Source: Euglena gracilis (lineage: Eukaryota). Taken from it: DNA of 64,000 bases. Under the pieces are notes generated by a model, which had not been told where the DNA came from, did not search any database, and saw only the letters and a program-made list of their open reading frames with translations. The stretch's first letter is position 1. Every line of letters starts with the position of its first letter. Where the stretch lies: the NCBI GenBank assembly GCA_039621445.1, contig CP154954.1:35015703-35079702 (forward strand). The letters are read 5' to 3'. Shown one piece after another: positions 11,434 to 59,865 of this stretch. Both the position numbers and the translations under genes were made by a program.

Positions 11434-11454
11434 TACACTTGGTAGCAGATTAGG
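11434..11454 (+). promoter_or_regulatory. Second LTR-end/PBS-like motif
   Basis: TACACT-TGGTAGCAGATTAGG repeats the LTR-end/PBS junction about 235 bp downstream of the first one. Confidence 0.6.
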
Positions 11455-11515
11455 TTTCTTTCCTACGCCCCTTCTCCCCCCTCAGCTAAACAGGTGACTT
11501 CAAACAGTGAGTGGT

Positions 11516-35700: not shown

Positions 35701-36718
35701 TTACTCCGAGTAACCGAATGGGTGTTCCAGGAGGCCTCCAAAGTCAGGGGACCCGTTGGTTTCATGATTGTCGTGGTTTAACGGTAAGAAGAACATGCAG
35801 CCGGAAGGTTGGTTGCAAGAAATGAGCAGATTTAGATGGGTGCATTCGACCATTCCGGGGGACATTTACCAGGTCAGCCCAGGTTACCATGTAAAAATGG
35901 ACCAAATTGGGCCTTACTCCGAGTTACCGAATGGGTGTTCCAGGAGGCCTCCAAAGTCAGGGGACCCGTTGGTTTCATGATTGTCGTGGTTTAATGGTAA
36001 AAAAGACATGCAGCGGGAGTGTTGGTTGCAAGAAATGAGCAGATTTAGATGGGTGTATTCGACCATTCCGGGGGACATTTACCAGGTCAGCCCAGGTTAC
36101 CATGTAAAAATGGACCAAATTGGGCCTTACTCCGAGTAACCGAATGGGTGTTCCAGGAGGCCTCCAAAGTCAGGGGACTCGTTGGTTTCATGATTGTCGT
36201 GGTTTAATGGTAAGAAAAACATGCAGCCGGAAGTTTGGTTGCAAGAAATGAGCAGATTTAGATGGGTGCATTCGACCATTCCGGGGGACATTTACCAGGT
36301 CAGCCCAGGTTACGATGTAAAAATGGACCAAATTGGGCCGTACTCCGAGTTACCGAACGGGTGTTCCAGGAGGCCTCCAAAGTCAGGGGACCCGTTGGTT
36401 TCATGATTGTCGTGGTTTAATGGTAAGAAAAGCATGCAGCGGAATGTTGGTTGCAAGAAATGAGCAGATTTAGATGGGTGCATTCGACCATTCCGGGGGA
36501 CATTTACCAGGTCAGCCCAGGTTACCACGTAAAAATGGACCAAATTGGGCCTTACTCCGAGTAACCGAATGGGTGTTCCAGGAGGCCTCCAAAGTCAGGG
36601 GACCCGTTGGTTTCATGATTGTCGTGGTTTAATGGTAAGAAAAACATGCAGCGGGAATGTTGGTTGCAAGAAATGAGCAGATTTAGATGGGTGCATTCGA
36701 CCATTCCGGGGGACATTT
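29740..36718 (+). repeat. 213-bp satellite subfamily A array (about 33 monomers)
   Basis: 213-bp periodicity. Ends at ...gggggaCATTT before the LTR. Confidence 0.97.
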
Positions 36719-37129
36719 AGTGTACGTCCAAGGACTTCCCTTTGACCCCTTTTGTCCCGGAAAAGCCTGTTTCGCTTTCTCCTGGTGCGCACCTACTTAG
36801 GTGAGTAAAAATCCTTGGAGTAACAAAAGCCCTTTTCCCAATTCCCCTATGCTAAGGCAGAGCACAAAGCAAGGCGCTGTAGAAGGATTTTCCTTCACAG
36901 TCGAGTTCAGTCTTTTCAGAGGTTAATCCTCTTGCTTCAAAACAATCAAAATGTGAAGAATAGAATACCACCTGTGAGGAAAAGAGATCACGCAGGCACG
37001 TGTGATACGTGTCGCTAAATCCCATAGGATCTGCCACGATCGTCAGGCTGTGTTCATCACAGCCGTCAGATTGTGACGGATCCAGACTCTGCAGGTTTCC
37101 CACAGAGCTGGGATCGTGCCTGGTACACA
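36719..37129 (-). repeat. 3' LTR (411 bp)
   Basis: Direct repeat of 53012-53422. Two substitutions spotted (gcagg/gtagg and ctggg/ctagg). Termini on the minus strand are TGTGTAC...GTACACT. Confidence 0.96.
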
Positions 37130-37139
37130 TCCCCCTCCC
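37130..37139 (-). promoter_or_regulatory. Polypurine tract
   Basis: The minus strand reads GGGAGGGGGA immediately before the 3' LTR start TGTGTAC. Confidence 0.85.
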
Positions 37140-38018
37140 AGGGCTATGCCCGATTTCCTTCTTGGACCAGGTCATCCCAGGTCCCGTCAGGATTTCAGAC
37201 ACAGCCCTGATCGGGTTCTGTTTTCCAGAACACGGATCTCTTTTCTCCACAGGGGCGCAACCCAAAAACCCGAAAACGCGCAAAAGGTTACCGCTTATCG
37301 CGGTTACCTATTAGCCGTTTCGGCTTAGGGGTGCGAAAAAGCCCACTGTGGGAAATTGGGGCTTGGCAGGTTTCCTGTCAAAGTATCCCATCCACCCACT
37401 TTGGGTGCGCCAAAGGCACGCGGGGTTGGTCAAGCGATTCGCTGAAAACCCGAGGGGAGAGGTGTGGAAGGGGGGGGGCAGGCTCCTATCCTGGTCATAC
37501 CCGGATAGGGCTCCTAGGCGGTCATATCCGCACTAGGAAACAAAAGCCTACTTACAAAACCGACTGCCGGCGACAGCTTTGCGGGGGTGGGGGGAAAGTA
37601 GGGAGGAGAGGGGGGCTGGCTTAGGCCAGAACAGAATTTTTGCTGTCTGGCAGCCTTAAGGGCCTTAGGGCCGAAAAGTGACAAGTTGGCCTATTATTAC
37701 GGCGTGCGCGCTGTGTGCTGTGCGTCACTTAGCGGCTTGCCAGGTTTCCCGGCTGCCAAGGTCTTCACAGCAGTAGCTCCTTCACGACGCAATAAGAGGC
37801 GATTACCTCCCGCAGACGGTTTCCGTCCGCATGGTCACTGGTATAATGGGTTGGCAGGGGGGGGGGGCTCTTGGATGCTTCCATCCAGAGCGCTGAGGGA
37901 CACAGACCCAGGTTCATCCCAGGGCTGTTTAGCGATTTCCGCTTCCAGTGTATATATATAGTGTATGAGCTCCATGAAGGCGCTTACCTTACATGGGCTT
38001 GGTAATGCCGTTTCGGCA

Positions 38019-41000
38019 TTACATCCGCTCCAGCCGCCAATAGTCATGGCGGGAGTCCAAGGGATCTTCCACAAGGACCATCTGGAATTGTGGTGGCTGT
38101 GGCCTGTCGACAAGCCAGGTTTCTGGCGAGTCGTAGTCGAAATCAGGTGCGATCCAGTCCCGAACCCATCCTTCGGGTACTGTCTGCTTGGTGGCACTCG
38201 CTCTTTCCGCGAGAAACCACTGCAGCTTCTCCCAGAATTTCCTGGGCAAAGTCGCTGGCCAGATGAAGTAGTTTCTCCGAGGGTGATTGGCTGACACCTG
38301 CGGGGCATTCCCCGGGTGGAAGTCGATGGGAACGTGGTAGGCGCATTCCGCCCGGACTGTATGGGGTCGCAATACGGCCCCTAGCCAGTCCTTCCAGGTC
38401 ATCCCGTGTTTTTCGGGTGGCCATTGTGGTAGGCACCAGCGACCGTTTCGGTCCTGGGTTGTGAACAGGCGGAAAAGTATCTTTTCCCTGTCCGCTGTCT
38501 CCCAGAGGTAAGGTAATCTTACCCCTGCTTCCTCAGCAGCGAGGCGTATCGCCCCACTGTCGATCTGCCACCCACGGGCCATTCCCGTGTGGCGGTAGTC
38601 GTCAAGCTTGAGGTTGGCATACTTGAAAAAGTCCTTGAACTTTTTGTTCAAGGTGGAGTATTCCTCCAGTGGCTTCTCGGCACTCGGCACGATTGTGCGA
38701 ACTGCGCCTTCCGCAGTGTGCCAGAAGGTACCTCGCAGGCAATTGACGCAGAGTACTGGTACATTCGTACCATCTCGTTCCGTGTAGCAAAAATTGTGCT
38801 TGTGGGTCCAACTGTCCACGCACTTGGCGCATACCAAGGCGGCACAGTTGGGTATGTACATATCCTTGTGGAACGATTTCCGCTCCACAGGGTTGCACAC
38901 ATGGACGAGGGGTAATCCCAAGTCAGGGGCACTGTTGTACATCCTGTGGCAAACAGTGCAGAGCCACACAAATCGGTTTTCCGATGTTCTGTCGACGAGG
39001 AATTCCTCGCCAAAGTATTGGGCCAAAACACGTGGTGATCTGGAATTGTAATAATTCCAGGTGACATTCTGGTCAAAGGACCATTTCCGTCCTTGACAGA
39101 ACAGTGGTTCAATCCACCGATTGAGACATTGGTCTGTTCGCAGCTTGTGTTCGATCATCATGTACCTGTTTTTCAGGTCATGAGTCTCAGGATCATCCTG
39201 AGTCATCGCATTCCAGTCGATGACAACTTCGCCTTCCGAAGGTGTCATAGTCGTAGAGGCGCGGGATTTTCCCTGCCCCTTCGTAGGTGGTTTCGGCTGT
39301 GAGGTTTTCCCATAGCCGGATGATGTGACCTGTGTGAATCCTCCTCCCGAGGCTAATCCTCGAGAAGAAGATGCACCCTGGCCTCCAGCACCACCACCGC
39401 CTTTCGGTGGGGGCTGATCACCTGTTTTAGGTGAGGGTTTGCAAGGCGCGGCACCGGGCTTTGATTTGGCCGGGGCCTTCGGACTTCCGCTTTCCGGAGC
39501 ATCCGAGGGTCGCCGTTCGGCGTCACGCTTGCTTGACCAGGTGCGTGGTGACGGCTGGGCCGGGGGTCTTTTCCCCGACACCGAGCGTCGTTGACCTTCA
39601 GCAGGGGTTTCCCGAGCTGAGGGTCGCCCTACGCGTTCTTTCGCTGCGCTCGTGGGTTTCCCAGGAGCAGCCGTGGAAGATGGTGTGGGCGTCGCCGCTG
39701 CACTTCGCGTTGGCGGAGTCTGTGGTGGGGGCATGGATGTCCGTGCAGCCTGTTTTTCAGGTGCCGGTGTCCGTGTGCCCGCACGCGTCGGTGCAGTGAC
39801 CGCGGTGTGTGGAGGTACGGGCTCATCCCGTGCCTCTGATCCCGCTACCGGTGCTAATGTAGGTTCATCCTGCACTGGCACGGGTAGCGTTGTCACCACG
39901 GACATTGCCGTTGGTTCGCCCTCCGTCCGTGTCGTTTCCGACACCGGCGGTGGCGCGGCCATTGGGGGAGGTTCATCCTCCTCCATGGCTGCAGCTTCAG
40001 TTGTTTCGTCCGCTGGCTGGGCCGTTTCTGCCGCAGCAGTGGAAGAGCTAGCTGCAGTGCCACGTGGGGTGACAACTGCGATCAGTGATCGCAAACCGCC
40101 GAGTACGCGTCCGCCCAGTGAGGGGCGCCGTTCAGGTCCTTCCCCTGAAGTGGGCTCCTCCACTGGCTCCTCTGTCGTCGGGATTTCCCCGGGGACAGGA
40201 AGCTTGAGGCGTAATACCTCAGGCGTATGGGTTACCGTCTCCGGCGGGTTTTCCCGCGGAGGGGTCGGTCCTCCTGGCGTACCCGGTGAGGATGGTGACA
40301 GTGGGACAGGCGTCATTTCACCTGTCGGTGATCCCGGGCGCTGGGCGGTTTCCGCCACAGTGTCCAGCATCACAACCGATGGGCTACGGGTTTCCCGTGC
40401 CGGAGGTTCCGCAGGCTGAGGTTCATCCTCGGCCATTGGGACCACTTCTTCCGTCTCCTCCGCTTCCGGAGGTGAGTCCTCTGTGTGTAGCTGTGCTGCA
40501 GAACGCGGGTCTTCCCCGGTTCTGTAGCACCCCTGTGCGTCTGACAGGCGGAAAAAGCTAATACTTTCGCTCCTGTCAGAGTTGGGATATGGGGGTGGCC
40601 ATGACGGTCTTACCCAGCTTCCGGGTAAGGGCTCTGGCTCGTCCTCGTTGTTACGGCAGAGGTCTTCCCACTGCATTCGCCGATCCCAGCTCATGCCACG
40701 TTCTCCTGTGTCTTCCAGGAAGGCTGGTAGCGGCAAGGCATAACGTGGTTGTTTTTCCACGTCTGCTGCGTAGAAGGACTGGAAATCTTCCCAGATCAGG
40801 ATATTCCCGAACTGGTTTTCCATGTGCTTCGGAAGACCGATTTCGGCCTCGTACCAGTCCGGCCGCAGGTTCATCCTGCGTCGGTCTTGGTCATTCGGTC
40901 TGGCTTCTTCCTCGGTGTATCCCCGAGGTAACCACTTCCTGTGAATATTCACATCAGTGGTCATGTACTCCAGGAAATAAATGTACACCTCCAGGACGTA

Positions 41001-43619
41001 GGTAATCCACGCCCTGTGCCAGTATTGTTGAAGCAGAAATATTTTCTGCCGGTGCTGTTTCAGCACCTTTCGATCTTGCGTTCCGATCTGGGGCTTTCGG
41101 CACTGATGCAGGAGAAATCTCCTGGTCAGTGGGCTGCCGGCATTCTCGGCAGTCGGAGGCGGTTTTCCACGCTCACCGAAACCCCAGAAATCAACAATGT
41201 GTTGCTCTTTGCAAAACTGGCATTCCAGCTTGTAACGCTGAGGATAGGCGAGGTCCACGTCCAGTACCTTGAACAGCATGCCATACATGCTATCCAAGAA
41301 TACTTGGAGGTTGTTCGTGAACATTACCGCAGCCTGCACCTGGAGTTTCTCCGGCAGGGGGTAATACTTCCACTGGATTCCCAGTGCGCTGACGGAATAC
41401 ATGTGGTTGAAGATTTCCTTCAACTGTGCGACGAACGTTTCATCGTCAGGACATGTTCCCAAACAGTTCACGTACGACTGACCGTTTCGGTCAGTAAAGA
41501 TGCCGAAGTTCTGGCAGGGGTATCCCAACCAGAACCACAGCTCCCAGAAACCGGGCATCCGGTCCAGGACGACTTCATTCGAATGAGGGTATCCCTCAAA
41601 TGCATGAAGTTCAGAACTGTAGAAAAAGCTGTTGCAGTGATCGTACATACGATCCTGTACCACTTCGAGCACCGCTTCCGGTGGTCGGTGGATGACGTTA
41701 CCTGCACGCGTGTACTGCTGAAGATTTTCTTCAATTTTCGGCCAGATCTCATCCAGGTAGTCGAACACCTGGTTAACGTCGTAATCCTTCGTTTTCGAAG
41801 GGTCGGCGGCTTTTCCGCCTTTTCCTGTCGGGGGTCCGGCAGATTTTCCGCCTTTGCCTGGAGCTGGTCCAGCGGGTTTTCCGCCTTTCCCAGATGGGGC
41901 TTTCCCACCTTTCTCCTGGCCTTTACCTTTACCCTTACCCTTGCCTTTTCCTTTACCCTTGCCCTTCGTGTTGGACAGCCATTCTATTGTCGCCCGATAT
42001 GGGTCCCAATATTCCCAGTATTCTGGGTCTTCTTCTGTATACACAGGATAAGTCACGGATTCCGTGCTTGGTGTTCGAGCAAATTCCTGCTCAGCATCAC
42101 CACGATTCGAGTAAACCGGTGCGACTGGGGATGGTCGGGTTTCCCGACGTGCCCGTTCTGCCGTCACGTCGGGCGCTGGCGGAGCTTCCTCCTCAGCGTC
42201 GACGTGCATCGCCGCGGGCGGATTTTCCGACCTCGGCGAGCGGCGTTGTGGCTGCGGCGTCAGATTTTCCGGGCCGCGGTCACGTTTGCCGGCGGCAGAG
42301 CTTGTGGGTCGTGCTGGTGGCGCTTCCGCCACAGCCACGTCCCGCTGTCGCGCTGGTTGACTTAACCGTGATGGAGCTGGGACTCCTGTGAGAGCCGACA
42401 CAGCAGCATCATACTGCTGGCGCTCTTCCCGTGTCATTTCCGCCCGGGCAGGGTATCCCTGGCCAGCGGAAACAGGGGGGCGACGTGCGATTTGTCGTTG
42501 GATCGTCACAGCATATTCATACTGTTGACGGTCCTCCTCAGTCTCGAACGGCCGACCAGTCCACGGGTTAACGGGTTCATCCCGTGCCGGGGGAACTGGT
42601 ACCGCACGAGGCGCTGCCGCGGCTTCCCGCGGACGAGCGCTTCGGGCAGAGTCAGACGTCGGGGGAGGATTTCCCGCCGCAGGACGTCGTGGAATAGGGT
42701 CAGGTATAGATGGGTGGGGTTGAGGTGGATATACATACTGATCCTGTGGGCTTGGCGCCTCCTGGGGATAATCCCCAGAGACGGCGTACTGAGACACAGG
42801 CTCCTGCGCAGGATAATCCCGCCGGGGCATGCGCTCAGGGGATCGAAAAATACTTTCTTTCACACGTGGGTGTTCACTCCGGACAGGTGCTTCCACCGTC
42901 TCTTCCTCGGGTAATCCGGGGGAGTGAGCACGAAAATGTGCAGTGTAAGTGCCAACGGGTGGTACCTGCCTTGCGACCTGTGGCGGGACTTCCACGCCCA
43001 GGTCACGCATGGTAATGTCTGCCGCGAAACCCGACGCGTCCGGGTCGGTGTAATACACCAGACCGGTCATCGTCGCCTGGGCGCACATACACCACAGGGC
43101 TGGAGGGGTATTCGCGATGGTCAAAACTTTACGGCAGTGGTCATCCCACAATGCCTGTGTGAGTTGGTCTGGTGCCGGGTTTGCGCTCATACGCATAACC
43201 CGGTTCATCGTCTCCGCCGTGCGGTGGATCATCACACCCGCATACGGTGGGAGGCGACGAGAGCCTGATGGCTGAGATGGCCGCGCTTCCGCGGGCATCT
43301 GGGTCATCCTGCTACTGCTGCTGGCTTCAGGGTTTCCCTGAGCCGCAGTCCGTGCAGGTGGCTGCGTACCGTATCGGTATGCATACTGGTCAGGTTGAGG
43401 GTGAGTGGTGGGGTGGTAAGGCGGTCCTCCGCCTGAATCCCTTCCACCGGGCAGCATGATACCGCCCGGGGTCGGTACGGTAAATTGTGTGGGTGGTTTG
43501 TTGTCAAGTGAAAGGTATCTCCCTGGTTTGGGTATTGGTTGGCAAACAAAAATTCTGCGGAAAGAAAGAATGATAAGAATCAATGATAAAAAGAAAAGAA
43601 AACAACATGGGTTTCCCAT
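38019..43619 (-). CDS. Extra ORF3 of the retrotransposon, 1866 aa, function unknown
   Basis: Uninterrupted 5.6-kb frame starting 6 nt after the chromodomain stop. Hydrophobic N-terminus, Pro/Ala/Glu-rich disordered tracts, a (KG)n run at about 41920-41965, an aromatic-rich central domain with CQFC..H, and a C-terminal CTVC..HVC..CAALVCAKC..CVNC Zn/RING-like cluster. The true start could be a later ATG. Confidence 0.85.
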   Translation of the reverse strand: MGNPCCFLFFLSLILIILSFRRIFVCQPIPKPGRYLSLDNKPPTQFTVPTPGGIMLPGGRDSGGGPPYHPTTHPQPDQYAYRYGTQPPARTAAQGNPEASSSSRMTQMPAEARPSQPSGSRRLPPYAGVMIHRTAETMNRVMRMSANPAPDQLTQALWDDHCRKVLTIANTPPALWCMCAQATMTGLVYYTDPDASGFAADITMRDLGVEVPPQVARQVPPVGTYTAHFRAHSPGLPEEETVEAPVRSEHPRVKESIFRSPERMPRRDYPAQEPVSQYAVSGDYPQEAPSPQDQYVYPPQPHPSIPDPIPRRPAAGNPPPTSDSARSARPREAAAAPRAVPVPPARDEPVNPWTGRPFETEEDRQQYEYAVTIQRQIARRPPVSAGQGYPARAEMTREERQQYDAAVSALTGVPAPSRLSQPARQRDVAVAEAPPARPTSSAAGKRDRGPENLTPQPQRRSPRSENPPAAMHVDAEEEAPPAPDVTAERARRETRPSPVAPVYSNRGDAEQEFARTPSTESVTYPVYTEEDPEYWEYWDPYRATIEWLSNTKGKGKGKGKGKGKGKGQEKGGKAPSGKGGKPAGPAPGKGGKSAGPPTGKGGKAADPSKTKDYDVNQVFDYLDEIWPKIEENLQQYTRAGNVIHRPPEAVLEVVQDRMYDHCNSFFYSSELHAFEGYPHSNEVVLDRMPGFWELWFWLGYPCQNFGIFTDRNGQSYVNCLGTCPDDETFVAQLKEIFNHMYSVSALGIQWKYYPLPEKLQVQAAVMFTNNLQVFLDSMYGMLFKVLDVDLAYPQRYKLECQFCKEQHIVDFWGFGERGKPPPTAENAGSPLTRRFLLHQCRKPQIGTQDRKVLKQHRQKIFLLQQYWHRAWITYVLEVYIYFLEYMTTDVNIHRKWLPRGYTEEEARPNDQDRRRMNLRPDWYEAEIGLPKHMENQFGNILIWEDFQSFYAADVEKQPRYALPLPAFLEDTGERGMSWDRRMQWEDLCRNNEDEPEPLPGSWVRPSWPPPYPNSDRSESISFFRLSDAQGCYRTGEDPRSAAQLHTEDSPPEAEETEEVVPMAEDEPQPAEPPARETRSPSVVMLDTVAETAQRPGSPTGEMTPVPLSPSSPGTPGGPTPPRENPPETVTHTPEVLRLKLPVPGEIPTTEEPVEEPTSGEGPERRPSLGGRVLGGLRSLIAVVTPRGTAASSSTAAAETAQPADETTEAAAMEEDEPPPMAAPPPVSETTRTEGEPTAMSVVTTLPVPVQDEPTLAPVAGSEARDEPVPPHTAVTAPTRAGTRTPAPEKQAARTSMPPPQTPPTRSAAATPTPSSTAAPGKPTSAAKERVGRPSARETPAEGQRRSVSGKRPPAQPSPRTWSSKRDAERRPSDAPESGSPKAPAKSKPGAAPCKPSPKTGDQPPPKGGGGAGGQGASSSRGLASGGGFTQVTSSGYGKTSQPKPPTKGQGKSRASTTMTPSEGEVVIDWNAMTQDDPETHDLKNRYMMIEHKLRTDQCLNRWIEPLFCQGRKWSFDQNVTWNYYNSRSPRVLAQYFGEEFLVDRTSENRFVWLCTVCHRMYNSAPDLGLPLVHVCNPVERKSFHKDMYIPNCAALVCAKCVDSWTHKHNFCYTERDGTNVPVLCVNCLRGTFWHTAEGAVRTIVPSAEKPLEEYSTLNKKFKDFFKYANLKLDDYRHTGMARGWQIDSGAIRLAAEEAGVRLPYLWETADREKILFRLFTTQDRNGRWCLPQWPPEKHGMTWKDWLGAVLRPHTVRAECAYHVPIDFHPGNAPQVSANHPRRNYFIWPATLPRKFWEKLQWFLAERASATKQTVPEGWVRDWIAPDFDYDSPETWLVDRPQPPQFQMVLVEDPLDSRHDYWRLERM

Positions 43620-43625
43620 GCGTTC

Positions 43626-44100
43626 TCAAAAACTTGTCATGGAAACATCAATGTTATGTTTTTTATTCCACAGCTTCCAATCTTGCTGGACATACCCAAC
43701 AAAACTGGTTGCTGGCTCCCAAGTGTCCTCCTCGGGCCCATACCCTTTCCAGCGGACCTTCCAAAGGTGCATACCTTTGTCGATTTTGTGATCGATAATT
43801 TTATCGACTACAAAGTCGTCCGTCTCAGGTAATCTGGAACGGGGTTTGAAGTGCAAACACGGGATGGGTTTCCCATCCGGTGGCGACATGTATGGCTTGA
43901 AGTCGTCCATATGAACGTCCTCAACACCATTCAGTAAAGCGTGCTTGTACCGCCCGCTGGTACCTAGTCTTTATAGGATTTCACAAGGGCCGAGCCAGAG
44001 GGGGTCCAGCTTGGAAGACTGCATGCGAGTACGGCTATTCCGTACCCACACGCGGTCACCGGGACTGTAAACAGGTGACTTGAAATTCTGCAAAAACGAT
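43626..44100 (-). pseudogene. pol: Integrase C-terminus (GPY/F-type motif) and chromodomain, frameshifted from pol and containing one in-frame TAA
   Basis: Reads PGDRVWVR...SKLDPLWLGPCEIL*...VHMDDFKPY, then FVVDKIIDHKIDKGMHLWKVRWKGYGPEEDTWEPATSF, a canonical chromodomain signature (about 43690-43820). Confidence 0.9.
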
Positions 44101-47100
44101 TTCCGTTTTGCTGCATGAATCAGTCACGCGTTTCTGGACTGCAGAACGTAGATTTTCTACTTCCGCAAACCAGGTCTCGCAACTGACACTCGTTCGGGCG
44201 GGTCTCTCCGAAGGGACATCCCCTATGGCCGGAGGGTCCCGTCCGAAAACTAATTTATAGGGGGAGTGAGGTAAAACCAACCCTGGTAGGGTATTGATAT
44301 AAAACAAAGACCATGGTAGAACTGATATCCAGTTGCTGCGCGAGTCAGCCAGTGAAAGGCGAAGCATATTCACGACGGATTTCACGGCTGCCTCGGCTCT
44401 ACCATTGCCTTTGGGTCGGTATATAATGGAAAAATGTTGCTCGATTCCGAGTAAACCGCACAAAGTGGTGAAAAACCTTGAAGAAATCAAATGGTCTTGA
44501 TCACTCACAATTTCATTCGGTAAACCCATCAAGCAAATGCATTTCTCCAAAAATATAGCTGCCAAACTTTGGGCAGTCAACCCTGACTTCTGGCATGGAA
44601 TGGCTACAATGTACCCACTCAGCCTGCAGACGACAACAAAAACGTAATCGTAAATTTTGTCGTCTGTTCCTTTGCACGGTTCCAATTCCAGAAAATCCAT
44701 GCAGAGGGATGTAAAAATGTCAGGGGGTACGGGGAAAAAGTCCATCGTACCAGGGGGGGTACCTCTGCGGGGTTTTACCGCTTGACAAATTGACCTCGTT
44801 GCGCTATGCGCAAACAGCGTGAGTAGAGCTCTTTTTTCGCTCAGGGTTGTACAGTACCTGCGGCCCACCAACGAAAGAAGTTTGGGGGCCCCAGGGTGAC
44901 CATGGTTGTGATAACACAAAATCACATCATCAACCAGGTCCTGGGGGATACAATATTTGTAACCCGATTCATTGCGAAAAACCAACCGTAAAGGTGAAAG
45001 AGTGTAATTATCCAGCACTTCGCCATTACGAAGTCTGGTGACAATGGTGTCATACACCGGATCACGACTATAATCCCATTCGCGAAAGAACAGTGGGGAA
45101 GGGGACTCCGTGCGCGTAATACGCCGGGGCCCGGACGTGCTTCCACGTCGGCGCCTTCCTCGCACTGGTGCGACCAGGAATAGTTGTGAAACGGGAAAAG
45201 AATCCAAAAGATTATCCGCAGCGTCGTTTCGACGTGCGTAGTCGTCAGCTTCCTGACTTCCATGAAAAGTCGCGTCTCCCTCATCCGGGTTCCCAGGGTA
45301 ATACCAAGGGGCCCGACTGAGCGGATCCGCTACTTTTTGTGTGTGACCAGGGGTATAGATAACCACAAGGTTGAATTGACTCAAGAACTCATGCCATCTG
45401 CATCGCCTTCCGACCGATGACATGGCCTTGTTCAAATCCTCGGTGTACCAGTGTTGGAGACTCTCATGGTCGGTCTTGACGAGGATCTGGACGAGGCTGC
45501 TGGCTACCCAGCTTCGGAATTTCTGGAGTATAAGCACGATTGCGTAGGTTTCCTTCTCGCGTATACTCCATTTGACTTGACCTTTTCCATCGTCGCCCTG
45601 TAACTTTCTGCTGAAGAAAGCCACAGGTCGGAGCTCATTCGCCGCATTATGCTGGCTAAGAACTCCGCCAACAGCGTAATCGCTGCTGTCGACTTCCAAC
45701 ACGTATGGTTTGTACGGGTCCGCGATTTCGAGGACAACATTCTCCAAAAGCAAAACCTTGATTTTCTCAAGGGCCTCGCGCATTTGGTCATCCCAAATGA
45801 CTTTGGTGTTGTCAACAGCCCGGTTTTTGAGCTGTTTGGTGAGGGGCACCGCGATTTTCGCGAAGTCCTTCATATAAATCGCGTAGTATTGGGCTAATCC
45901 CAAAAATCCTTTGAGGTGAGTAATCGTTTTGATTACCTCAGGGGTCCATTTCTTAATGGCTTCGAGTTTACTCGGAGCGGCTTTCCGCTGTCCATTGCTG
46001 AGGATGTGACCGCAAAATTTTATGAGAATCCGAAACAAATGCATTTTCGCGCCTTTCGCGAAAAGCACATGTTTTTGAAAAGCGGTTAATACCGCACAAA
46101 CATGGTGGAAGTGTGTGACGAGGATATCCTCGGTCGATTTTGCGGATGGTGGTGGTGTTCCCACCAGCACATCATCAATGTACACAATGGCAAACGGTAA
46201 ATCGCGTAGAACCCATTGTATCATGCGCTGAAACATGGCTGGGCCATTCTTAACACCCATGGGGAGTACCGTCCATTGGTACACACCCTTGGATGTCACG
46301 AATGCCGTGTATGGTTGGGAGTCAGGGTGTAAGTGCATTTGGTGAAAACCGTCCTCCAGATCGAAAATTGACCACAACCGGTTTTCCGATTGTTTGGTGA
46401 TCAAATCCTCGATCAGGGGGAGCGGGAAGGGATCATCCCTTGTTTGGGAGTTCAGGTACCGGTAATCCAGCACCAGCCTCCATTTCTTCTGACCTGAGGG
46501 GTCTGGGGGTTTAGGAACAACAAATGCCTGGGATGTCCACTCGCTTTTCGAGGGTACTATCCACTTGCGCTGAATAAGCTTCTCAATCATTTCATTGAGA
46601 GCTTGTTCGCGTTCTCCCGAACAACGAAAAAATTTCCGGTGCATTGGCTTTGCTCCATCCTTAAGCTCGATCTTACAAACACCGAACGGACCGCGTATCG
46701 CGGGGTCGATGTCGCACGCGTATACTGGATTTTCCAGCACACCGTGGAATTCGCGGGTAATCCGCGAACAGAATTCGGCTGACTTAGGATGCTGACCTGC
46801 ACTCTCGATGACTGCGGAAACCGCCAGGGTATCCCTGGGGCTACCGAGCTTCCTCGGCACCGCAAATTCGGACATTCCGAATGCATCGAAGAAACATACG
46901 CGAAAAATGATTTCTTGCAAGGGTGGTAATATTTTACCACAAAAATCCTCAAAAATCGGTACATTAGTGGGTAAATCCCACCAATGAAAACATACATACG
47001 ATAGTTGGGTGAACCATTCCGCTTCCGGAATGATGGGTATGAGAATAACTCCACGGGCTTCATCCCGCAGAATTTTCTCAACCGCACATTCGATAAGTTT

Positions 47101-47418
47101 TGGGGGAGGGTGCATCCATAACACCGTATCACCCCAAAATTTATCAAATGCGTTGGAGTGTTGTGACCAATGACGTGGCAAACGGGCATGTGCATTGGAT
47201 GAGAAGGCATCGATTTCCAATGCCAAATCAAAAGAATCAGCCAATGTCGCGATTTTGGAAAACCATCGTTCCAAAATGCGATATTGACCAAAATTGAAAG
47301 CATTCCATACGCGTTTCGCGTATTCATGCACCCGATTTTCGGGTTGAAGGGTAGAAACACAATGAATGGATCCACAAACATGCGGGTTGTCTTCCACTAC
47401 CACAAGGGTTAATCCCAA
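44056..47418 (-). CDS. pol: Pol: MTase-like domain, reverse transcriptase, RNase H and integrase core
   Basis: RT: KWRLVLDYRYLN, FDLEDGFHQ, LPMGVKNGP, VYIDDVLV. RNase H: LEVDSSDYAVGGVLSQ, EKETYAIV, KTDHESL, ADPLSR. Integrase: HNHGHPG, CMDF, IVSDQD, GNGRAEAAV (DDE). Confidence 0.96.
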   Translation of the reverse strand: MGLTLVVVEDNPHVCGSIHCVSTLQPENRVHEYAKRVWNAFNFGQYRILERWFSKIATLADSFDLALEIDAFSSNAHARLPRHWSQHSNAFDKFWGDTVLWMHPPPKLIECAVEKILRDEARGVILIPIIPEAEWFTQLSYVCFHWWDLPTNVPIFEDFCGKILPPLQEIIFRVCFFDAFGMSEFAVPRKLGSPRDTLAVSAVIESAGQHPKSAEFCSRITREFHGVLENPVYACDIDPAIRGPFGVCKIELKDGAKPMHRKFFRCSGEREQALNEMIEKLIQRKWIVPSKSEWTSQAFVVPKPPDPSGQKKWRLVLDYRYLNSQTRDDPFPLPLIEDLITKQSENRLWSIFDLEDGFHQMHLHPDSQPYTAFVTSKGVYQWTVLPMGVKNGPAMFQRMIQWVLRDLPFAIVYIDDVLVGTPPPSAKSTEDILVTHFHHVCAVLTAFQKHVLFAKGAKMHLFRILIKFCGHILSNGQRKAAPSKLEAIKKWTPEVIKTITHLKGFLGLAQYYAIYMKDFAKIAVPLTKQLKNRAVDNTKVIWDDQMREALEKIKVLLLENVVLEIADPYKPYVLEVDSSDYAVGGVLSQHNAANELRPVAFFSRKLQGDDGKGQVKWSIREKETYAIVLILQKFRSWVASSLVQILVKTDHESLQHWYTEDLNKAMSSVGRRCRWHEFLSQFNLVVIYTPGHTQKVADPLSRAPWYYPGNPDEGDATFHGSQEADDYARRNDAADNLLDSFPVSQLFLVAPVRGRRRRGSTSGPRRITRTESPSPLFFREWDYSRDPVYDTIVTRLRNGEVLDNYTLSPLRLVFRNESGYKYCIPQDLVDDVILCYHNHGHPGAPKLLSLVGRRYCTTLSEKRALLTLFAHSATRSICQAVKPRRGTPPGTMDFFPVPPDIFTSLCMDFLELEPCKGTDDKIYDYVFVVVCRLSGYIVAIPCQKSGLTAQSLAAIFLEKCICLMGLPNEIVSDQDHLISSRFFTTLCGLLGIEQHFSIIYRPKGNGRAEAAVKSVVNMLRLSLADSRSNWISVLPWSLFYINTLPGLVLPHSPYKLVFGRDPPAIGDVPSERPARTSVSCETWFAEVENLRSAVQKRVTDSCSKTEIVFAEFQVTCLQSR
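46884..47285 (-). other. DIRS/phage-Dam-like N6-adenine DNA methyltransferase-like domain within pol
   Basis: EIDAFSSNAHARLPRHWS...NAFDKFWGDTVLWMHPPPKLIECAVEKI...GVILIPIIPEAEWF follows the DxFA..N..hP.a.S..DAF..W...PP..LI....KI....hhhhP....W pattern of DIRS-element MT domains. Recognised by eye. Confidence 0.8.
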
Positions 47419-48159
47419 GGGAGTTTGGACAGGTTGGGGGTTTCCCCATTCCGCATCAAATTCCGTAACAAGTGTGATCGCGATTGTAATTAGGAATCGC
47501 GCTTTTCGCGTTTCCGAACAACGAGGCTAATCCGCGTTGTTGGAGTACTCGGTGTACCTCCGCGCATTGCGGGCTACAACCAAGTGTATCCTGGGGGGTG
47601 GATTCCGTTTTCGGAATTGCGATTAGTGTCGGATTTTGAACTAAACATCCACAATCGAAATCCGATTGGGTGGAAATTCTCCTGCAGTGCACACATTGGA
47701 AGGAAGTGTGATGGTGTGACGGGTGTGCGTGAAAGTGGGTGTCGATGGCATTAGCCGGTGAGTCTTGTACAGGTGTGCCTGGATTCGGCACAACTGGTAG
47801 GGAAACGGAGTGGTGGTGTAGCTGGGCGACTACTCGACACCGATTACTTCAGGCCTTTGGGCTTTCGTCTTGTAACCCAGGAAACGGCGGGGGTACCGCC
47901 CTACTCTCGCTGCCTGCCTCATGTGGAACGCATTTGGGTGTTGCTTGGATGAAAGGCATCGATTTTCCAATGCCCCCTCCCTCCGTCCCCCCTCCATGCG
48001 ATTGACCAATTTTTCGCGTTCCACGTGTGACAGTTGTTGGGTTTGGATCACAGGTTTCCATTGGTCGGTGTGGGCCCAGGTGGTCAATCATGGATACAGG
48101 GGTTTGGGTCCTTGGGTTTCGCTGTGGGCTGGCAAACCTCTGTGGTCGCGAACACAACT

Positions 48160-48450
48160 CAATCGTACTGTGCGTAAAAAAGGGTATCCCAAATTACGTC
48201 AATCTGTATCTCCGGCGCACCCAATTTTGGTGTTGTACTGTGGTGTTGTGTGATGCTGCGGAATGATGGCAAGATTATCTCGACTACCCCACCACCACAC
48301 CGATTGGGTTATCCCTTGTATCTTGTGTGTGTAAATTGGTAATTCTTTGTCCTGTCTTGGTACCAAGAGCGGTCGGTATCAACCCCAACCGTAGAGCAGT
48401 GCATGCGACCACCCATGTCATGAGAATTTTAACTTTGTAGAAATGGGATG
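48160..48450 (-). pseudogene. Degenerate, frameshifted retropepsin (aspartic protease)
   Basis: Allowing 1-nt shifts, the minus strand gives KVKIL-x-DMGG (about 48440-48405, at the DTG position) and IQIDVI-LGYPFLR (about 48210-48172). It lies at the expected position between gag and RT. Confidence 0.5.
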
Positions 48451-48899
48451 CTTTTCCGCTTGGACAGTAATTCCATTGGTGGTTCAAGTGGGTTGGCAAC
48501 CGTTTGCATGCCAGCTCTCCCATGAATTGTTTTTTCTTTGCTCAGCATTCATTCCGAGCGGAAATGTGAGTTGTGGTACAGAAATAATTCCGGATTCCAC
48601 CGTTTGGAAGGCGATGCATGGGGGGTAAGGTTGATCAGCGCAACCTCCTCTGTTCATCAGCCCCATCGTGCCCTTCGGATCCTCTCCCCTACTCCAAGTC
48701 ACCCCCGCAAGAATGAACCGGCCGCATCCCCAAAATAATTTTTGGTGGAATAGATGGATGTTCAATGACACCGCCATCGGTTTACTTCGGTTTCGGGGCG
48801 CCTCATTATTCCCCGTCCGAGGTCTCATCCCCTCCCCGCCTGCCCAAGCCGGGGTGTCCTCCTCCAAACATAATGAACCAAGCCTCCAAGTGATGATCC

Positions 48900-51800
48900 C
48901 ACCCCACTCAACCGCTCCCTCCCCCGCGTTTCCTCCACGTAGCCGGGCCGGGGAACGAGATCTGGGACATTTGGATGCGTGGTGATCTTTGGAACCGCAA
49001 GTGAACAACGTGATTTGTGGCGGATCCGCATAACGGGGGAACGGTATTTTCCGTTTTTCCGTCAAACCGTCGTGGTGAACGGGTTTTCCCCTCCCGACCT
49101 CTGTATTCCCGTACCTCGCGTGAATCGATGACTCGCGCTCCACTTCGCGAACGTGATCGAAGCGGGTTGAAATCCCGTTTTCGGGCAGGGGGCCAGGTGA
49201 CCGACCGCGAGGACGGGTTTCCCCGACCATACCTCGCATGTGTGACTTGGCCTACCGCTAAAGTCGTCTCTCCGAAGACCGTGAAACTCCCGATTGACGT
49301 GAAAACGCCGAGGAACCCGATCCCCGTGAGGAGGTCGAGCCCCTTGGGCTTCCAATACGCTTTCCGCGCATCGGATTCGGGCATTCCCGAGACATGTGAC
49401 CAGATTTGTTGCACAAAAAGCACAGTTTATCCGTGCCCTGGTCCGAAGAACGCTGATTCCGCGTTTTCGGTCCCGTGGTGGGTGATCTTGGTGACATGGG
49501 TGATTTGCGCAAGGCATTAACCGCACCCGCAGGGATTCCCGCAGTGGGATGCGTTTGGAAAGCGGACTGTATTTGTCCCACTTGTGTGAGCTTGAGTTGC
49601 TTTGACACATAATTCCAACGTTGGGCAAGAGTCATCTCATGCCCTGCCAACTCCTCGCGATGGATATCCTTCACGAGGATGGTGTGAAATGCAACAGAAC
49701 CGCATCGAATTGTTCGCGCATTTGCTTCTCGCTAAGTTCATCAACTTCGGAAGCAAGTGCTAACCATTTGGCATACCAAAGGTCAATGGATTTCCATTTG
49801 CGATCCGATGGCGCGCTTTGTCGCCACTCTTCTCCAGGTAATCCTGGTGACCAGACTTGAATTGGTTGCAGCGTATTGCTCAACCAGGTCATCAAATGAT
49901 ACGCCATTACGTATCACCAAATTGCGTGTGCGTTCTCGCTCCTCCCTCGGTAGGCAATCGATGAATTCCATCTTGACTACCTCGGGATTCGGGTCTTGGG
50001 TGGGTCCCTTTAGTGCCCAATAGTACTCCCAGTCCCGAAAAAATTGTCTCCATGTGGTTGGATCCCCGTCCCATTGGGGCTTCACCTTGTTCGCGATTGC
50101 GATGGTGCCCTTGAAGTCTCTCTGAGTAACCCGCTGACCCTCGGTGGTATTCCAGGGGTTTGGGTCAGGGTAATTCTTAACACCAAACGCGTTTCGCGGA
50201 TTTTTCGCTCTATGTTTAACCCGTGCAGGATTTCCCGCACCAAGTGTAGGGTTGGCAGGAGTCTCCTGCGGGAATTGCGAAAATGTGGTGAAATTCTCCC
50301 GTGGGGCGGGTTTCCCGCCGAAAACCCGATGGGTGTACTTGTAATCCAGAACCCTTTGGTGGTTGGTATGATCGCGAATGCGACACATGACCAATACCAG
50401 GTGTGGGGTGTTGGCTCATTCCTCGTACAAGGTTGGAATGTTGAATTTCTTGGTGGAGACTCGAATTTTCGAGTGGGGGGTCAATTTCCTCATCGGAAAT
50501 GTCGTGCGAAGAGTGAGTTTGTGGTGTTGGCAAATGCAAAGGTGGTACAATTCGCGTTTTCGCGGGTGGTTGTACCAAATTCGCGGTGGATGTAGGGATT
50601 CCTACTCCAGAAATGGTAATTTGAGAACGCGATTCCGGGACATTTGGAATACCAACCGCAGCGCTTACCGCGGTGGATGGTGGCACAACCGTATCGGAGT
50701 GGACATTTTATCCAAACTCGCGGACACGTCATGCATCGTTTCTTCCAAATGATCCACCCACTTGAGCTTGCCGCAAATAACGTCAACCTCAGTCTCCAAA
50801 TGCCTAATGCGTTTGCGGTAACGGGAAAAATCTTCCAAGTGTGGCAACTTTTCAGAAACCAAGTGTAATTCTTGGGCAAGATTTCCTTGGGACTCCTCCA
50901 CATTCCGGAGTTGACCCGCAAGCGCTTTTACCGCATTTGAGACGGTTTGCAATTGGTGGAGTGACTTGGTGGGGGTTTCCACGGTGGTGCGCGAATTTCC
51001 GCGGTTGGCTTTTCCAACAACGCAGAAATTCGTCCATCCAACCGAGAAACCTCATCTTGCATGGATCGGGCATTCCGATTCACGCTTTCCTCAATTTGGA
51101 GCAAACTTGTACAAAATGCTTGCAAGGTTTCCTTGTTGTCACCAAGCACTTTGTCATAAAATGAGCGAAATTCCGGTGACTCGGATATCCGAGCACGCGA
51201 AATGGGGGGTAGTGAGCGGATTTCCGTCACTGTGGTGGACAACAAGGTGCAACGGGTTTGTAATTCCCCAATAGCGGCTTGAATACCACTAATGTCGGGA
51301 ATTCGCTTGGAAAGTGCAGAAACATGCTCCTGCAAACCGACAACGGTGGCATTAATACCGCCAATGTCCGTTTGCATTTGTTGTTGCATGAAATCCAACC
51401 GTTGTGCGCAATCCGCGATTTTCGCGTTCAAGGTGGTTAATCCATCCTGATTTGCGGCACAATGGCAGGATTTTTGCTCCAAGTGTGAAATTCGTTCCTC
51501 CAAAAGCTGGATTTGCGTACGGGGAACAAAATTTTCTTGCACTTTCGCCTGAAATTGCTTCAAATGCTCGATTTCCGAGCCAAGATGCAAAATCCGTTGT
51601 TGTGCTTCTTGGAAAGAAGTGGTAAGTGCGGCAAAATGCTCAACCGCGACAAAGTTACCGATTTCCGGCATTTTGGGGGTGGCATTTTGCGCTTGTAACT
51701 GCTGCTGCAATTGCAGTAACATGGTTGAACAGGATTCCAATTGGGCAAAAAGATGGCTCATACCATCCTGCACATGCAGAAACTTGGAATCATTCCGCGT

Positions 51801-52757
51801 TTCCGCTTCATGCAGCATTTCGCTGATTTGTTGGAAATTTTGTGGAAGTTGGATGCGCAAAATACTGTCAACACTTTCTCGAAAATGCTGAAGGTCTTTC
51901 CCCGCATTTTCAAAATTGTGTTGGCAATATTTGCCGATTTCCTGCAAATAATTCCAGCAACATTCCAGTTTGGTGTTGACAACCCTTTGATTGTCCTCAT
52001 CAAACTGCAAAACTTTGTTGAGCATGGTTGCGCATTCCGCAACGCATTGGTGGACATGCAAAATTTGCTTGCTAAGCGGGTGATCCGCTGGGAGTTGACC
52101 GAGAATTCGGTAAACATCACCGGGGGTGAGGTTATCCCTCAAATCTTCCTCATAGTCCTCCACAATGGAAACGGCACCAGAGATTTCCGGTACCACCAGA
52201 CGCATATCTGGGTTCCATGGCAATGCAGGGAAAACCGCAGCTTCCGCGGGTAATCCCGGCAAAGCGTGAAATGGTGTGGGGGGTGGTAATTGAGGGGGGG
52301 GTTGGAAAAAACACGGTGTTTCCACCGAGTTGCACTCCAAAAGGCCCACCGGTGCTTCCACCGGGGATCTTTTGGGTGTGAACAGAGCAAAGGGCAAATA
52401 CCCCTCACTTTGTTCATGGGTAACATGAGTAACCAAGTGTGAGGATGCAAGGGGTTCATCCCCTCGCCGTATCAATGATGGGTGAATCGGGATGGAGGAA
52501 GGCATTTTGCCACCTACATCCCGCACAATCAATGACAATGATGATGAAGAGGGCTCATTACCCCCATGCAACAATAAAGGCGTTTCGCCTTTTGACAATG
52601 ACAAATGAGTCAAATTGCCTTCTTCTTGCTTGGGGGGTCGGGAATTGGAACTTGTTTCATTCAAACCGTTCCAATCCCCGCAATCTTCATCACAATTGCT
52701 CAATGAACTCATCAACAAGTCATAATCAAATTTGGGGTTGGGGCTTGTGCTCTGCAT
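48900..52757 (-). pseudogene. gag: Gag, unusually long and broken into several frames
   Basis: Overlapping ORF pieces at 50928-52781 (coiled-coil rich, first ATG 52757), 50665-50982, 50216-50686, 49783-50394 (capsid-like KPQWDGDPTTWRQFFRDWEYYW) and 49671-49907. Zinc knuckles CFLCNKSGHMSREC (about 49381-49422) and x-FTCGSKDHHASKC (about 48967-49010). Confidence 0.8.
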
Positions 52758-52983
52758 CTTTTGAGATGGGTAAAAAGGCAAAAACCCAAAAATTCACACA
52801 AATAAGCAGAGAAACAGGGACCAGAAAGGTTGTATCGGCGATTACCGAACAGAGCCTTCTGAGACCTGTATCCTTGCTTAAAGGTTGGCTAGGGGCCAGG
52901 AACAGTACTTTCACCGTGTTTCACGGCTCAGTACGATCCTCACCACCAGTCAACCACAGAGTTTCTCTGTGTGGAACGTCTGT

Positions 52984-53011
52984 GTAGGATCGTTGCCTAA
53001 ATCTGCTACCA
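52984..53011 (-). promoter_or_regulatory. Primer-binding site complementary to an initiator tRNA-Met-like 3' end
   Basis: The minus strand reads TGGTAGCAGATTTAGGCAACGATCCTAC directly after the 5' LTR. The plus strand gtagg-atcgttg-cctaa-atctgct-a-cca has T-arm, acceptor and CCA geometry. Confidence 0.85.
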
Positions 53012-53422
53012 AGTGTACGTCCAAGGACTTCCCTTTGACCCCTTTTGTCCCGGAAAAGCCTGTTTCGCTTTCTCCTGGTGCGCACCTACTTAGGTGAGTA
53101 AAAATCCTTGGAGTAACAAAAGCCCTTTTCCCAATTCCCCTATGCTAAGGCAGAGCACAAAGCAAGGCGCTGTAGAAGGATTTTCCTTCACAGTCGAGTT
53201 CAGTCTTTTCAGAGGTTAATCCTCTTGCTTCAAAACAATCAAAATGTGAAGAATAGAATACCACCTGTGAGGAAAAGAGATCACGCAGGCACGTGTGATA
53301 CGTGTCGCTAAATCCCATAGGATCTGCCACGATCGTCAGGCTGTGTTCATCACAGCCGTCAGATTGTGACGGATCCAGACTCTGTAGGTTTCCCACAGAG
53401 CTAGGATCGTGCCTGGTACACA
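53012..53422 (-). repeat. 5' LTR (411 bp)
   Basis: Direct repeat of 36719-37129, adjacent to the PBS. Confidence 0.96.
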
Positions 53423-59400: not shown

Positions 59401-59865
59401 TTACCGTGTAAAAATGGACCAAAATTGGGCCTTACTCCGAGTAGCCGAATGGGTGTTCCAGGAGGCCTCCAAAGTCAGGGGACCCGTTGGTTTCCTGATT
59501 GTCGTGGTTTAATGGTAGAAAAAACATGCAGCGGGAATGTTGGTTGCAAGAAATGAGCACATTTAGATGGGCGCATTCGACCATTCCGGGGGACATTTAC
59601 CAGGTCAGCCCAGGTTACCATGTGAAAATGGACCAAATTGGGCCTTACTCCGAGAAACCGAATGGGTGTTCCAGGAGGCCTCCAAAGTCAGGGGACCCGT
59701 TGGTTTCATGATTGTCGTGGTTTAATGGTAAGAAAAACATGCAGCATAAACGGTTGGTTGCAAGAAATGAGCAGATTTAGATGGGTGCATTCGACCATTC
59801 CGGGGGACATTTACCAGGTCAGCCCAGGTTACCATGTAAAAATGGACCAAATTGGGCCTTACTCC
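53423..59865 (+). repeat. 213-bp satellite subfamily A array (about 30 monomers)
   Basis: Resumes in register at CATTTaccagg and ends at ...ggccttactcc (59865). Confidence 0.97.

Follow-up and report, generated by a model that had tools for sequence, protein, structure and literature searches.

How mobile DNA adapts to the epigenome of its host is illustrated by retrotransposons carrying modules for modifying or reading chromatin. Dam (adenine methyltransferase) domains occur in long terminal repeat (LTR) retrotransposons outside the DIRS group, and chromodomain-bearing elements account for 30.9% of the Dam-carrying transposable elements (Dam-TEs) treated in the main text of a recent preprint (bioRxiv 10.64898/2026.05.21.726589). 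The same text distinguishes five Dam-LTR lineages, including a Euglena group with Euglena gracilis among the hosts, derives the LTR-borne Dams from DIRS elements, reports an Asn-Pro-Pro triplet with flanking aromatic residues as well conserved, and refers to elements combining Dam, a cytosine DNA methyltransferase (DNMT) and a chromodomain ('EpiLTR') as 'epigenetic toolkits' (bioRxiv 10.64898/2026.05.21.726589). Here, we describe an element of this kind in a 64,000-nucleotide stretch of the E. gracilis genome, hereafter the window (assembly GCA_039621445.1, contig CP154954.1, positions 35,015,703 to 35,079,702 of the forward strand). We interpret it, with a probability of roughly 0.7, as a young insertion of a very abundant Ty3/gypsy 'DAM-LTR' chromovirus family that possesses a separate third open reading frame (ORF3), the copy itself being defective. 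The initial annotation of the window had hinted at a new architecture, to be given up if a described one matched; LTR elements with Dam and a chromodomain are already in the preprint of May 2026, and the headline combination is thus published, with ORF3 and a degenerate catalytic motif being the additions relative to its main text.

The element spans 16,704 bp (36719-53422) and is read on the minus strand, as all its long ORFs lie in that orientation. It resides within a 213-bp satellite that makes up 67.7% of the window, in six arrays detected with TRF, and that flanks the element on both sides (29740-36719 and 53422-59865, 95-96% matches). The sole long direct repeat pair outside the satellite, as revealed by self-comparison of the window, is that of the two 411-bp LTRs, which differ by 2 mismatches (409/411 identical, 99.5%; Table 1), indicating that the insertion is young. 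The element is bracketed by CATTT, and deletion of the element together with one CATTT regains the satellite consensus ...GGGGGACATTTACCAGG...; restoration of the monomer implies a true insertion accompanied by a 5-bp target-site duplication (TSD), the length of which is readable as 5 to 7 bp, owing to shared end bases. The 5' LTR reads TGTGTACC...GTACACT and is followed immediately by the primer-binding site (PBS) TGGTAGCAGATTTAGGC, the first ten bases of which are presumably compatible with an animal/fungal-type initiator-Met tRNA at its 3' end, whereas the polypurine tract (PPT) GGGAGGGGGA abuts the 3' LTR on its upstream side. The direct LTR pair, TSD, PBS and PPT by which we recognize Ty3/gypsy elements are all in place. 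Transposition into the satellite, as proposed in the initial annotation, is corroborated by the satellite on both sides and the restored monomer; its description of intact ends holds for the LTR pair, TSD, PBS and PPT but not for the interior, in which gag, the protease (PR) and the integrase (IN) C-terminus are broken. ARAGORN and Rfam found no tRNA or RNA gene in the window, and the 213-bp satellite does not appear, by its sequence, to be an obvious tRNA or RNA-gene derivative.

The genes of the element are arranged in the order gag, PR, Dam-like domain, reverse transcriptase (RT), RNase H (RH), IN, chromodomain and ORF3. In the main pol ORF, Pfam identifies Dam (E = 1.3e-3), RVT_1, two RNase H families, a weak integrase zinc finger and rve; RVT_1 (86.8 bits), RT_RNaseH_2 (84 bits) and rve (36.4 bits) each score above the cutoff and occur in that order. 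The YIDD motif of RT, the acidic residues of RNase H and the DD35E of the integrase are all present, and the PR-RT-RH-IN order of Ty3/gypsy pol is recognizable, with PR reduced to a decayed remnant that is intact in relatives. The pre-RT part of pol, used as a query, retrieved 11 relatives at E<=1e-3 among 922 candidates, all from metagenome collections, and the ENA contigs holding pol relatives are 12-19 kb long. In four of the seven relatives that were read whole, a single ORF encodes PR, a Cys motif, Dam, RT, RH, IN and the chromodomain and ends right after the latter, exactly at the pol stop of the window element, where relative P0011, which was not read whole, also stops; among the other three, PR is missing from one and the integrase-chromodomain end from two. 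In the four, PR (DTGC) is followed by a conserved CxxC...[FY]DCGC motif ahead of the Dam-like domain; PF24626, which we take to be an SH3-type integrase C-terminal domain, also occurs in relatives. The identical order in the relatives indicates that gag-PR-MTase-RT-RH-IN-CHD, where MTase and CHD denote the Dam-like domain and the chromodomain, is the design of the family. The element encodes rve with DD35E, and no match to a tyrosine recombinase, the hallmark of DIRS elements, was found in the scanned ORFs; likewise, Pfam detected no cytosine DNMT domain, as would be expected of an EpiLTR, in the sense-strand ORFs scanned.

The chromodomain (PF00385, 44 bits against a cutoff of 25.1, E = 2e-11) is encoded in the frame 43626-43970, next to the main pol ORF. 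Its aromatic triad F/W/Y occupies the cage positions in DDFVVDK...VRWKGY, as judged from an alignment with HP1 made by eye, and three aromatic cage residues characterize group I chromodomains (PMC3605345), so that the domain is a canonical member of this group. It is contiguous with IN in the relatives, as in chromoviruses generally; in the window copy, a frameshift and a stop intervene between the two domains. By analogy, tethering to methyl-lysine heterochromatin would be the established expectation for such a chromodomain. The full gene order given in the initial annotation is borne out by the Pfam matches, the PR remnants and the continuous pol ORFs of the relatives, and its chromovirus-type reader by this canonical domain following IN.

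The family is represented in many public sequencing runs. Twenty of 24 listed runs contain all or part of the stretch and 15 contain at least half of its words (16 studies). Contigs were compared for four runs, of which X15, X17 and X18 are of RNA type and X1 is DNA; 117,439 contigs of X1 align to the 15.9-kb interior, indicating that the family is highly repeated. Cover is almost nil in the bin 48260-48789 for each of the four runs and is thin over the central part of ORF3 in X15 and X18, although contig depth cannot rank the parts of the element. RNA library X17 covers 29 of the 30 bins of the interior, a coverage to which DNA carry-over may contribute and which we do not claim as expression. 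A relative of ORF3 among E. gracilis transcripts (see below), a G+C content of about 50% and the Dam-LTR elements described from E. gracilis (bioRxiv 10.64898/2026.05.21.726589) agree with a euglenid host for the family.

ORF3 shares its frame with pol and opens right after the pol stop TGA. Its first ~600 residues are of low complexity and run into a KG repeat; they are followed by a domain of normal composition that we denote D1 (~aa 613-1015), a P/T/A/E-rich linker of 450 residues and a Cys/His- and Trp-rich domain, D2 (~aa 1465-1868). A HMMER search with aa 613-1812 against 1.84 billion representatives yielded 22 homologues at E<=1e-3, 11 of them at E<=1e-10, all of which are fragments of 74-689 aa covering D1, the linker or D2. 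The D1 relatives share YPQ.Y...CxxC....DFWG, and the D2 relatives, including an E. gracilis transcript from EukProt (43% identity), share CTxCH, HxC, NCxAxxCxxC and CxNC, a set of motifs that looks like a two-site zinc module. Among the 40 best-supported of 1,121 family differences, 28 fall within ORF3, with 22/28 being third-position and 22/28 synonymous (binomial p = 1.2e-6). Furthermore, the chromodomain/ORF3 junction is bridged by contigs of X15 (record 11, 43459-44404) and X17 (record 19, 43159-44065). Collectively, the synonymous bias, the 22 homologues and the junction contigs indicate that the 5.6-kb third ORF noted in the initial annotation is a real, conserved gene of the family which, judging from its variants, is under purifying selection. 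ORF3 thus is a new retroelement protein to characterize, large, selected and endowed with two conserved domains without a known family.

Indeed, D1, D2 and eight homologues matched no Pfam family below E 0.1, and PDB sequence profiles for D1 and D2 gave nothing meaningful. A word-based comparison of ORF3 with proteins of 1027-3269 aa returned none at E<=1e-3, low-complexity words having probably filled the candidate list. For the AlphaFold2 (AF2) model of D2 (pLDDT 55.9), Foldseek gave no match at E<=1e-3, the best VIA-align Z was 4.0 and no fold could be named; the best protein atlas score of D2 was 0.76. For D1, the atlas clusters were unnamed ones plus Plavaka (19% of members), Transposase_21 (55%) and RAG1 RNase-H domains; a transposase-like fold, with scores of 0.84-0.86, all below 0.9, and 109-125 shared features, was treated as a lead only and not used.

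Ahead of the second ATG of ORF3 lies a polypyrimidine tract of 56 bases (43610-43555) that ends in CAG and includes the most pyrimidine-rich 50-nt stretch (41/50) on the sense strand of the element; it is also the most T-rich (32/50, compared to a mean of 11 and a standard deviation of 4). Two further observations concern the ORF3 region. Contigs of X15 and X17 both cease to match at 41507, within D1, and continue with 240-255 bases that are similar to each other and unlike the window, indicating that relatives differ from the window copy downstream of this position. On the plus strand, stop-free frames run antisense to ORF3 at 39595-40419 (274 codons) and 40932-42365 (477 codons), which most likely arise incidentally from the G+C-rich sequence of low complexity that encodes ORF3.

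Cut out alone (46867-47331), the METHYLTRANSFERASE-like domain matches PF05869 with an E-value of 6e-5 (23.2 bits), and the same family is matched by all 11 aligned clade members at E<=0.1 (best 2.6e-7), placing a PF05869 domain in a non-DIRS LTR retrotransposon, as in DAM-LTR elements. The AF2 model of the domain (pLDDT 89.7) produced 17 Foldseek matches at E<=1e-3 among the predicted viral protein structures of BFVD, comprising nine named methyltransferases (eight adenine, one 'DNA methylase'), seven nameless proteins and one giant-virus WW-domain protein; the best match was a phage Dam (E 9.9e-9, TMq 0.71, rmsd 3.4 A over 146 columns). The top fold match in the PDB was PCIF1/CAPAM, the cap adenosine N6-methyltransferase (E 1.8e-4, TMq 0.62), with KsgA and DOT1L ranking next; a PDB sequence profile of the domain gave no meaningful match. 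The presence of PF05869 in 11/11 members together with the fold matches makes homology to Dam sound.

At the catalytic position, HPPP in the window element stands in place of the (D/N)PP-plus-aromatic signature of Dam enzymes, and the ten relatives have HPPL, HPPA (twice), NPPL, NPPV, NPSL, HPPS, NPPI, NPHY and HPMF, in a register set by the conserved W-x4-LW-x-[NH]-P pattern rather than by residue-level structural alignment. Thus, instead of the Asn-Pro-Pro plus aromatic of described DAM-LTR elements, the clade shows N in 5/11, H in 6/11, the second P in 9/11 and an aromatic in 2/11, with the remainder of the domain well kept (63% mean column identity in 11 sequences). The degenerate motif makes a 'writer' function doubtful for the clade, and the domain is more likely to be a binding or structural module than an adenine methyltransferase. 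With HPPP in the window and variation in 10/10 relatives, the 'methyltransferase-like writer' of the initial annotation is cast into doubt. A clade in which the motif varies and the fold is kept bears on whether TE-borne Dams methylate at all.

The window copy itself has decayed. Compared to the relatives, the frame of pol changes near 47500, past the Cys motif but ahead of the Dam-like domain, and again near 44120; the TAA at 43971-43973 falls within the integrase C-terminal part, and the integrase CxxC has lost its first Cys, a residue found in 7/7 relatives, which damages the HHCC finger. The protease persists as remnants in two frames (tblastn and inspection by eye), with VDTD where the relatives have DTG. 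The 621-codon 5' ORF, for which one homologue was found (60% identical), is most likely the N-terminal portion of a long gag that, in this copy, is truncated by a frameshift: weak matches of coiled-coil type resume in another frame at 50665-51051, and other copies have an extra T at 50995. No single frame is open across the 3.4 kb between this ORF and pol; here, Pfam detected a CCHC zinc knuckle at about 49400, in the gag region, and no capsid family in the gag pieces. In the contigs of the four public runs, other copies gain or lose bases at 47799, 48949, 49187, 49676, 50279, 50300, 50690 and 50995, the state of the window being in the minority at some of these sites and common to a large part of the contigs at others. 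The breaks are clustered, as ORF3, the pol core and the 5' ORF, amounting to 10.9 of 15.9 kb, are break-free (p ~3e-6 if 11 breaks were uniformly distributed). Because many other copies show several of the same frame states, defective members of the family are likely to be copied in trans, and the window copy was probably already defective at insertion. It is non-functional, with gag and PR broken and pol carrying two frameshifts, one stop and a damaged HHCC finger; this coding-defective copy is not the autonomous 'toolkit' carrier envisaged previously.

A second, truncated LTR element occupies the same array. Its LTR, on the plus strand (10770-11204), has the same termini as that of the 16.7-kb element, TGTGTACCAGGCA...GGACGTACACT, followed by TGGTAGCAG; between the shared termini, BLAST detected only short similarity of the two LTRs. 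The termini and the PBS nevertheless confirm the earlier claim of a related LTR in this array. Within the same segment, a second copy of ...ACACTTGGTAGCAGATTAGG, comprising the LTR end and PBS, is found at 11437-11460, ~230 bp after the first, and may reflect either a short duplication within the segment or another fragment. The truncated LTR sits exactly on the boundary between two satellite subfamilies: the satellite at 1-10769 is older or of a different subfamily (86% matches, many indels), whereas that at 11516-36718 is homogeneous (95-97% matches). The two LTR elements occupy different positions of the satellite monomer, arguing against a sequence-specific target, so that any preference would be for chromatin rather than for sequence. 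The clean, young insertion in homogeneous satellite offers a concrete site at which chromodomain-guided targeting can be tested.

Other features of the satellite region were also apparent. A 2.4-kb non-satellite block (27315-29739) interrupts the array. Inverted repeats of 150 bp (27315-27464 and 28073-28222, 98.7% identical) enclose its first 908 bp, an arrangement that looks like a MITE-type or foldback element; the rest of the block contains ORFs of 80-225 aa. The segment 59866-60566 is an inverted copy of 27315-28017 (98.9% identical), and beyond 60567 the satellite runs in the opposite orientation, with a mirror-image junction. Either the array has undergone an inverted segmental duplication over 59866-64000 or the assembly is folded back there.

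In our preferred interpretation, that of a young, defective insertion of an abundant DAM-LTR chromovirus family with a separate ORF3, the family would encode a long gag with a coiled-coil N-terminal part and two CCHC knuckles, a pol consisting of PR, the CxxC...CxC motif, a DIRS/phage-type Dam-like domain, RT, RNase H and an IN ending in the chromodomain, and a separate 3' gene of about 1,800 aa with two conserved domains. Reverse transcription would presumably be primed at the PBS by a tRNA of the initiator-Met type. The chromodomain, by analogy with group I chromoviruses, would tether integration to methyl-lysine heterochromatin, which would explain the landing in satellite. ORF3 might be expressed from a spliced or trans-spliced subgenomic RNA via the polypyrimidine-CAG tract, with translation from 43457, a route suggested by sequence features alone. 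The Dam-like domain, its fold kept and its catalytic tetrapeptide not, would serve in binding or structure. Beyond this, we tentatively raise the possibility of an undescribed, probably euglenid Dam-chromovirus lineage in which a non-catalytic Dam is combined with a selected ~1,800-aa accessory gene expressed by (trans-)splicing and with colonization of satellite heterochromatin via the chromodomain. If this is correct, Dam would have been retained, after loss of the NPP and aromatic signature, for binding adenine (methylated or not), nucleic acid or a host factor, and the accessory gene would hold two new domain families, one of them a Cys/His module of zinc type.

Several points weigh against parts of this interpretation. 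Heterochromatin targeting is a prediction made by analogy, and insertions seen in a satellite window are necessarily in satellite; with two-thirds of the window being satellite, two insertions there say little about targeting. The window Dam-like domain, at 23.2 bits, falls below the curated Pfam cutoff of 28.1 and misses the 1e-5 screen of the preprint. Moreover, even motif-intact TE Dams produced no gain of N6-methyladenine (6mA) in Escherichia coli (bioRxiv 10.64898/2026.05.21.726589), so that motif loss is not the sole possible cause of inactivity and activity in the native context is possible. The G+C content of ORF3 (0.52-0.61) is higher than that of pol (0.48-0.51), which could mean a separate origin. 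No splice joints were seen in the contigs of the RNA-type runs X15, X17 and X18, which cannot show transcript starts and in which the absence of joints is no evidence against splicing. Finally, two in-frame length variants (66 and 72 bases) located just after the CAG fit coding from the first ATG.

The last point bears on an alternative view of ORF3, whereby translation starts at the first ATG (43619) and the T-rich tract encodes the hydrophobic leader of a signal-anchored or secreted env-like protein, with the P/T/S-rich linker being mucin-like and the Cys-rich domain disulfide-bonded. The position 3' of pol resembles that of env genes, residues 9-27 form the sole strongly hydrophobic 19-mer (Kyte-Doolittle 2.35), and the variants, both multiples of three, mildly favour coding. 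However, the next best segment reaches only 1.16 on the same scale, leaving ORF3 without an apparent candidate for a membrane anchor or fusion peptide; conserved His besides Cys (CTxCH, HxC) fits zinc binding, the KG-rich basic repeats fit a nucleic-acid or nuclear protein, and the tract ends in a consensus CAG. An env-like ORF3 therefore appears unlikely.

We consider it doubtful, too, that the element represents a self-sufficient lineage in which 6mA is written by a methyltransferase of its own, chromatin is read through the chromodomain, and satellite or centromeric chromatin is actively targeted. The strongly supported Dam fold, the canonical chromodomain and the presence of two related LTR elements in one array are compatible with such a lineage, as is the higher 6mA on Dam-LTR insertions reported for other hosts in the main text of the preprint (bioRxiv 10.64898/2026.05.21.726589). 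Against this stand the replacement of N by H in 6/11 sequences and the lack of an aromatic after the motif in 9/11, the dead PR, broken gag and broken integrase C-terminus of this copy, and the status of targeting as a prediction for two elements whose monomer positions differ.

That ORF3 is a captured host gene or a nested foreign segment specific to this copy or subfamily, rather than a standing part of the family, is improbable. Such an origin would account for a G+C content above that of pol, for the lack of Pfam or fold links to retroelement proteins and for the fact that the best named relative is simply an E. gracilis transcript. Yet ORF3 is located between the pol stop and the PPT, within one LTR pair and a clean target duplication, contigs of two other runs span the chromodomain/ORF3 junction, and the variants are mostly synonymous; an ancient capture that turned into a stable family gene would fit the preferred interpretation. 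An assembly chimera of the internal region, although high-copy repeats in satellite arrays are hard to assemble and another part of the array has an inverted duplicate at 59866-64000, can be practically dismissed in view of the matched LTR pair, the matching target duplication, the restored monomer, a gene order identical to that of independent metagenomic relatives and the independent contigs bridging the pol/ORF3 junction.

Table 1. Coordinates of the LTR elements and their parts in the window (strand "." where orientation does not apply)
Feature	Start	End	Strand	Remarks
Truncated related element: 435-bp LTR, PBS TGGTAGCAG, ~300 bp of internal sequence	10770	11515	+	
Target-site duplication, left copy (CATTT on +)	36714	36718	.	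Monomer restored on removal
3' LTR, 411 bp	36719	37129	-	409/411 identical to 53012-53422
Polypurine tract GGGAGGGGGA, directly upstream of 3' LTR	37130	37139	-	
ORF3, 1868 codons stop to stop	38019	43625	-	ATGs at 43619 and 43457; TAA stop at 38019
T-rich polypyrimidine tract ending in CAG, between pol stop and second ORF3 ATG	43555	43610	-	Candidate 3' splice acceptor
Natural pol stop TGA	43626	43628	-	Pol of relatives ends at same point
Chromodomain, aromatic F, W, Y (group I type)	43713	43814	-	PF00385
Integrase C-terminal (SH3/GPY-F-like) part	43830	44120	-	Beyond frameshift near 44120; in-frame TAA 43971-43973
Main pol ORF, 1156 codons: Dam-like, RT (YIDD), RNase H, integrase zinc finger, DD35E core	44056	47526	-	First Cys of zinc-finger CxxC lost
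Dam-like domain	46867	47331	-	Motif IV position HPPP (47101-47121 holds LWMHPPP)
CxxC...CxC motif between PR and Dam-like domain	47645	47695	-	Frame differs from main pol ORF in this copy
Protease remnant over two frames	48166	48389	-	Active-site position VDTD; LGYPFL motif present
Gag nucleocapsid region, two CCHC knuckles	48964	49422	-	Knuckles at 49378-49422 and 48964-48999
Gag middle part, three frames	49423	50927	-	Extra bases in other copies at 49676, 50279, 50300, 50690
5' ORF, 621 codons, coiled-coil rich	50928	52793	-	First ATG 52757
Primer-binding site TGGTAGCAGATTTAGGC	52995	53011	-	
5' LTR	53012	53422	-	Paired with 36719-37129
Target-site duplication, right copy (CATTT on +)	53423	53427	.	

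With regard to prior description, our literature searches found no account, for elements of this type, of a giant 3' ORF, satellite insertion, the degenerate motif, the Cys motif preceding Dam or a long coiled-coil gag. The main text of the preprint makes no mention of a 3' accessory ORF, gag, protease or satellites, although its supplements may already show the family or ORF3 (bioRxiv 10.64898/2026.05.21.726589). Profile searches of metagenome and viral contigs with the Dam domain and with ORF3 D2 (4-sequence alignment) found no related loci.

Among the described systems, the window element is closest to the DAM-LTR elements, with which it shares a Ty3/gypsy-like pol containing a DIRS-derived, phage-type Dam and, in many of them, a chromodomain. 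It departs from them in having N/H-P-x-x where the preprint reports Asn-Pro-Pro plus aromatic and, as far as the main text goes, in adding the Cys motif, the long coiled-coil gag and ORF3; since no DNMT was found, it is not an 'EpiLTR'. The 'MT' domain of the DIRS1 group belongs to the same Dam-like family, PF05869, but DIRS elements have a tyrosine recombinase and are devoid of direct LTRs and a DDE integrase, whereas the window element combines direct LTRs, a 5-bp duplication and rve. Group I chromoviruses, such as MAGGY, Tcn1-like elements and Sushi, which are about 5-7 kb long, resemble it in the integrase C-terminal chromodomain with three aromatic cage residues but carry neither a Dam-like domain nor a large 3' ORF. 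Extra 3' ORFs are known in other LTR retrotransposons, namely, env in errantiviruses and those of plant Athila/Tat/Ogre elements, and here the likeness extends to the placement of the extra gene between pol and the PPT and to the splice-acceptor-like tract before it. By contrast, ORF3 has no sequence, Pfam or fold similarity to these proteins and no second hydrophobic segment that could serve as a transmembrane anchor after its putative leader, and is distinguished by two conserved domains with Cys/His motifs.

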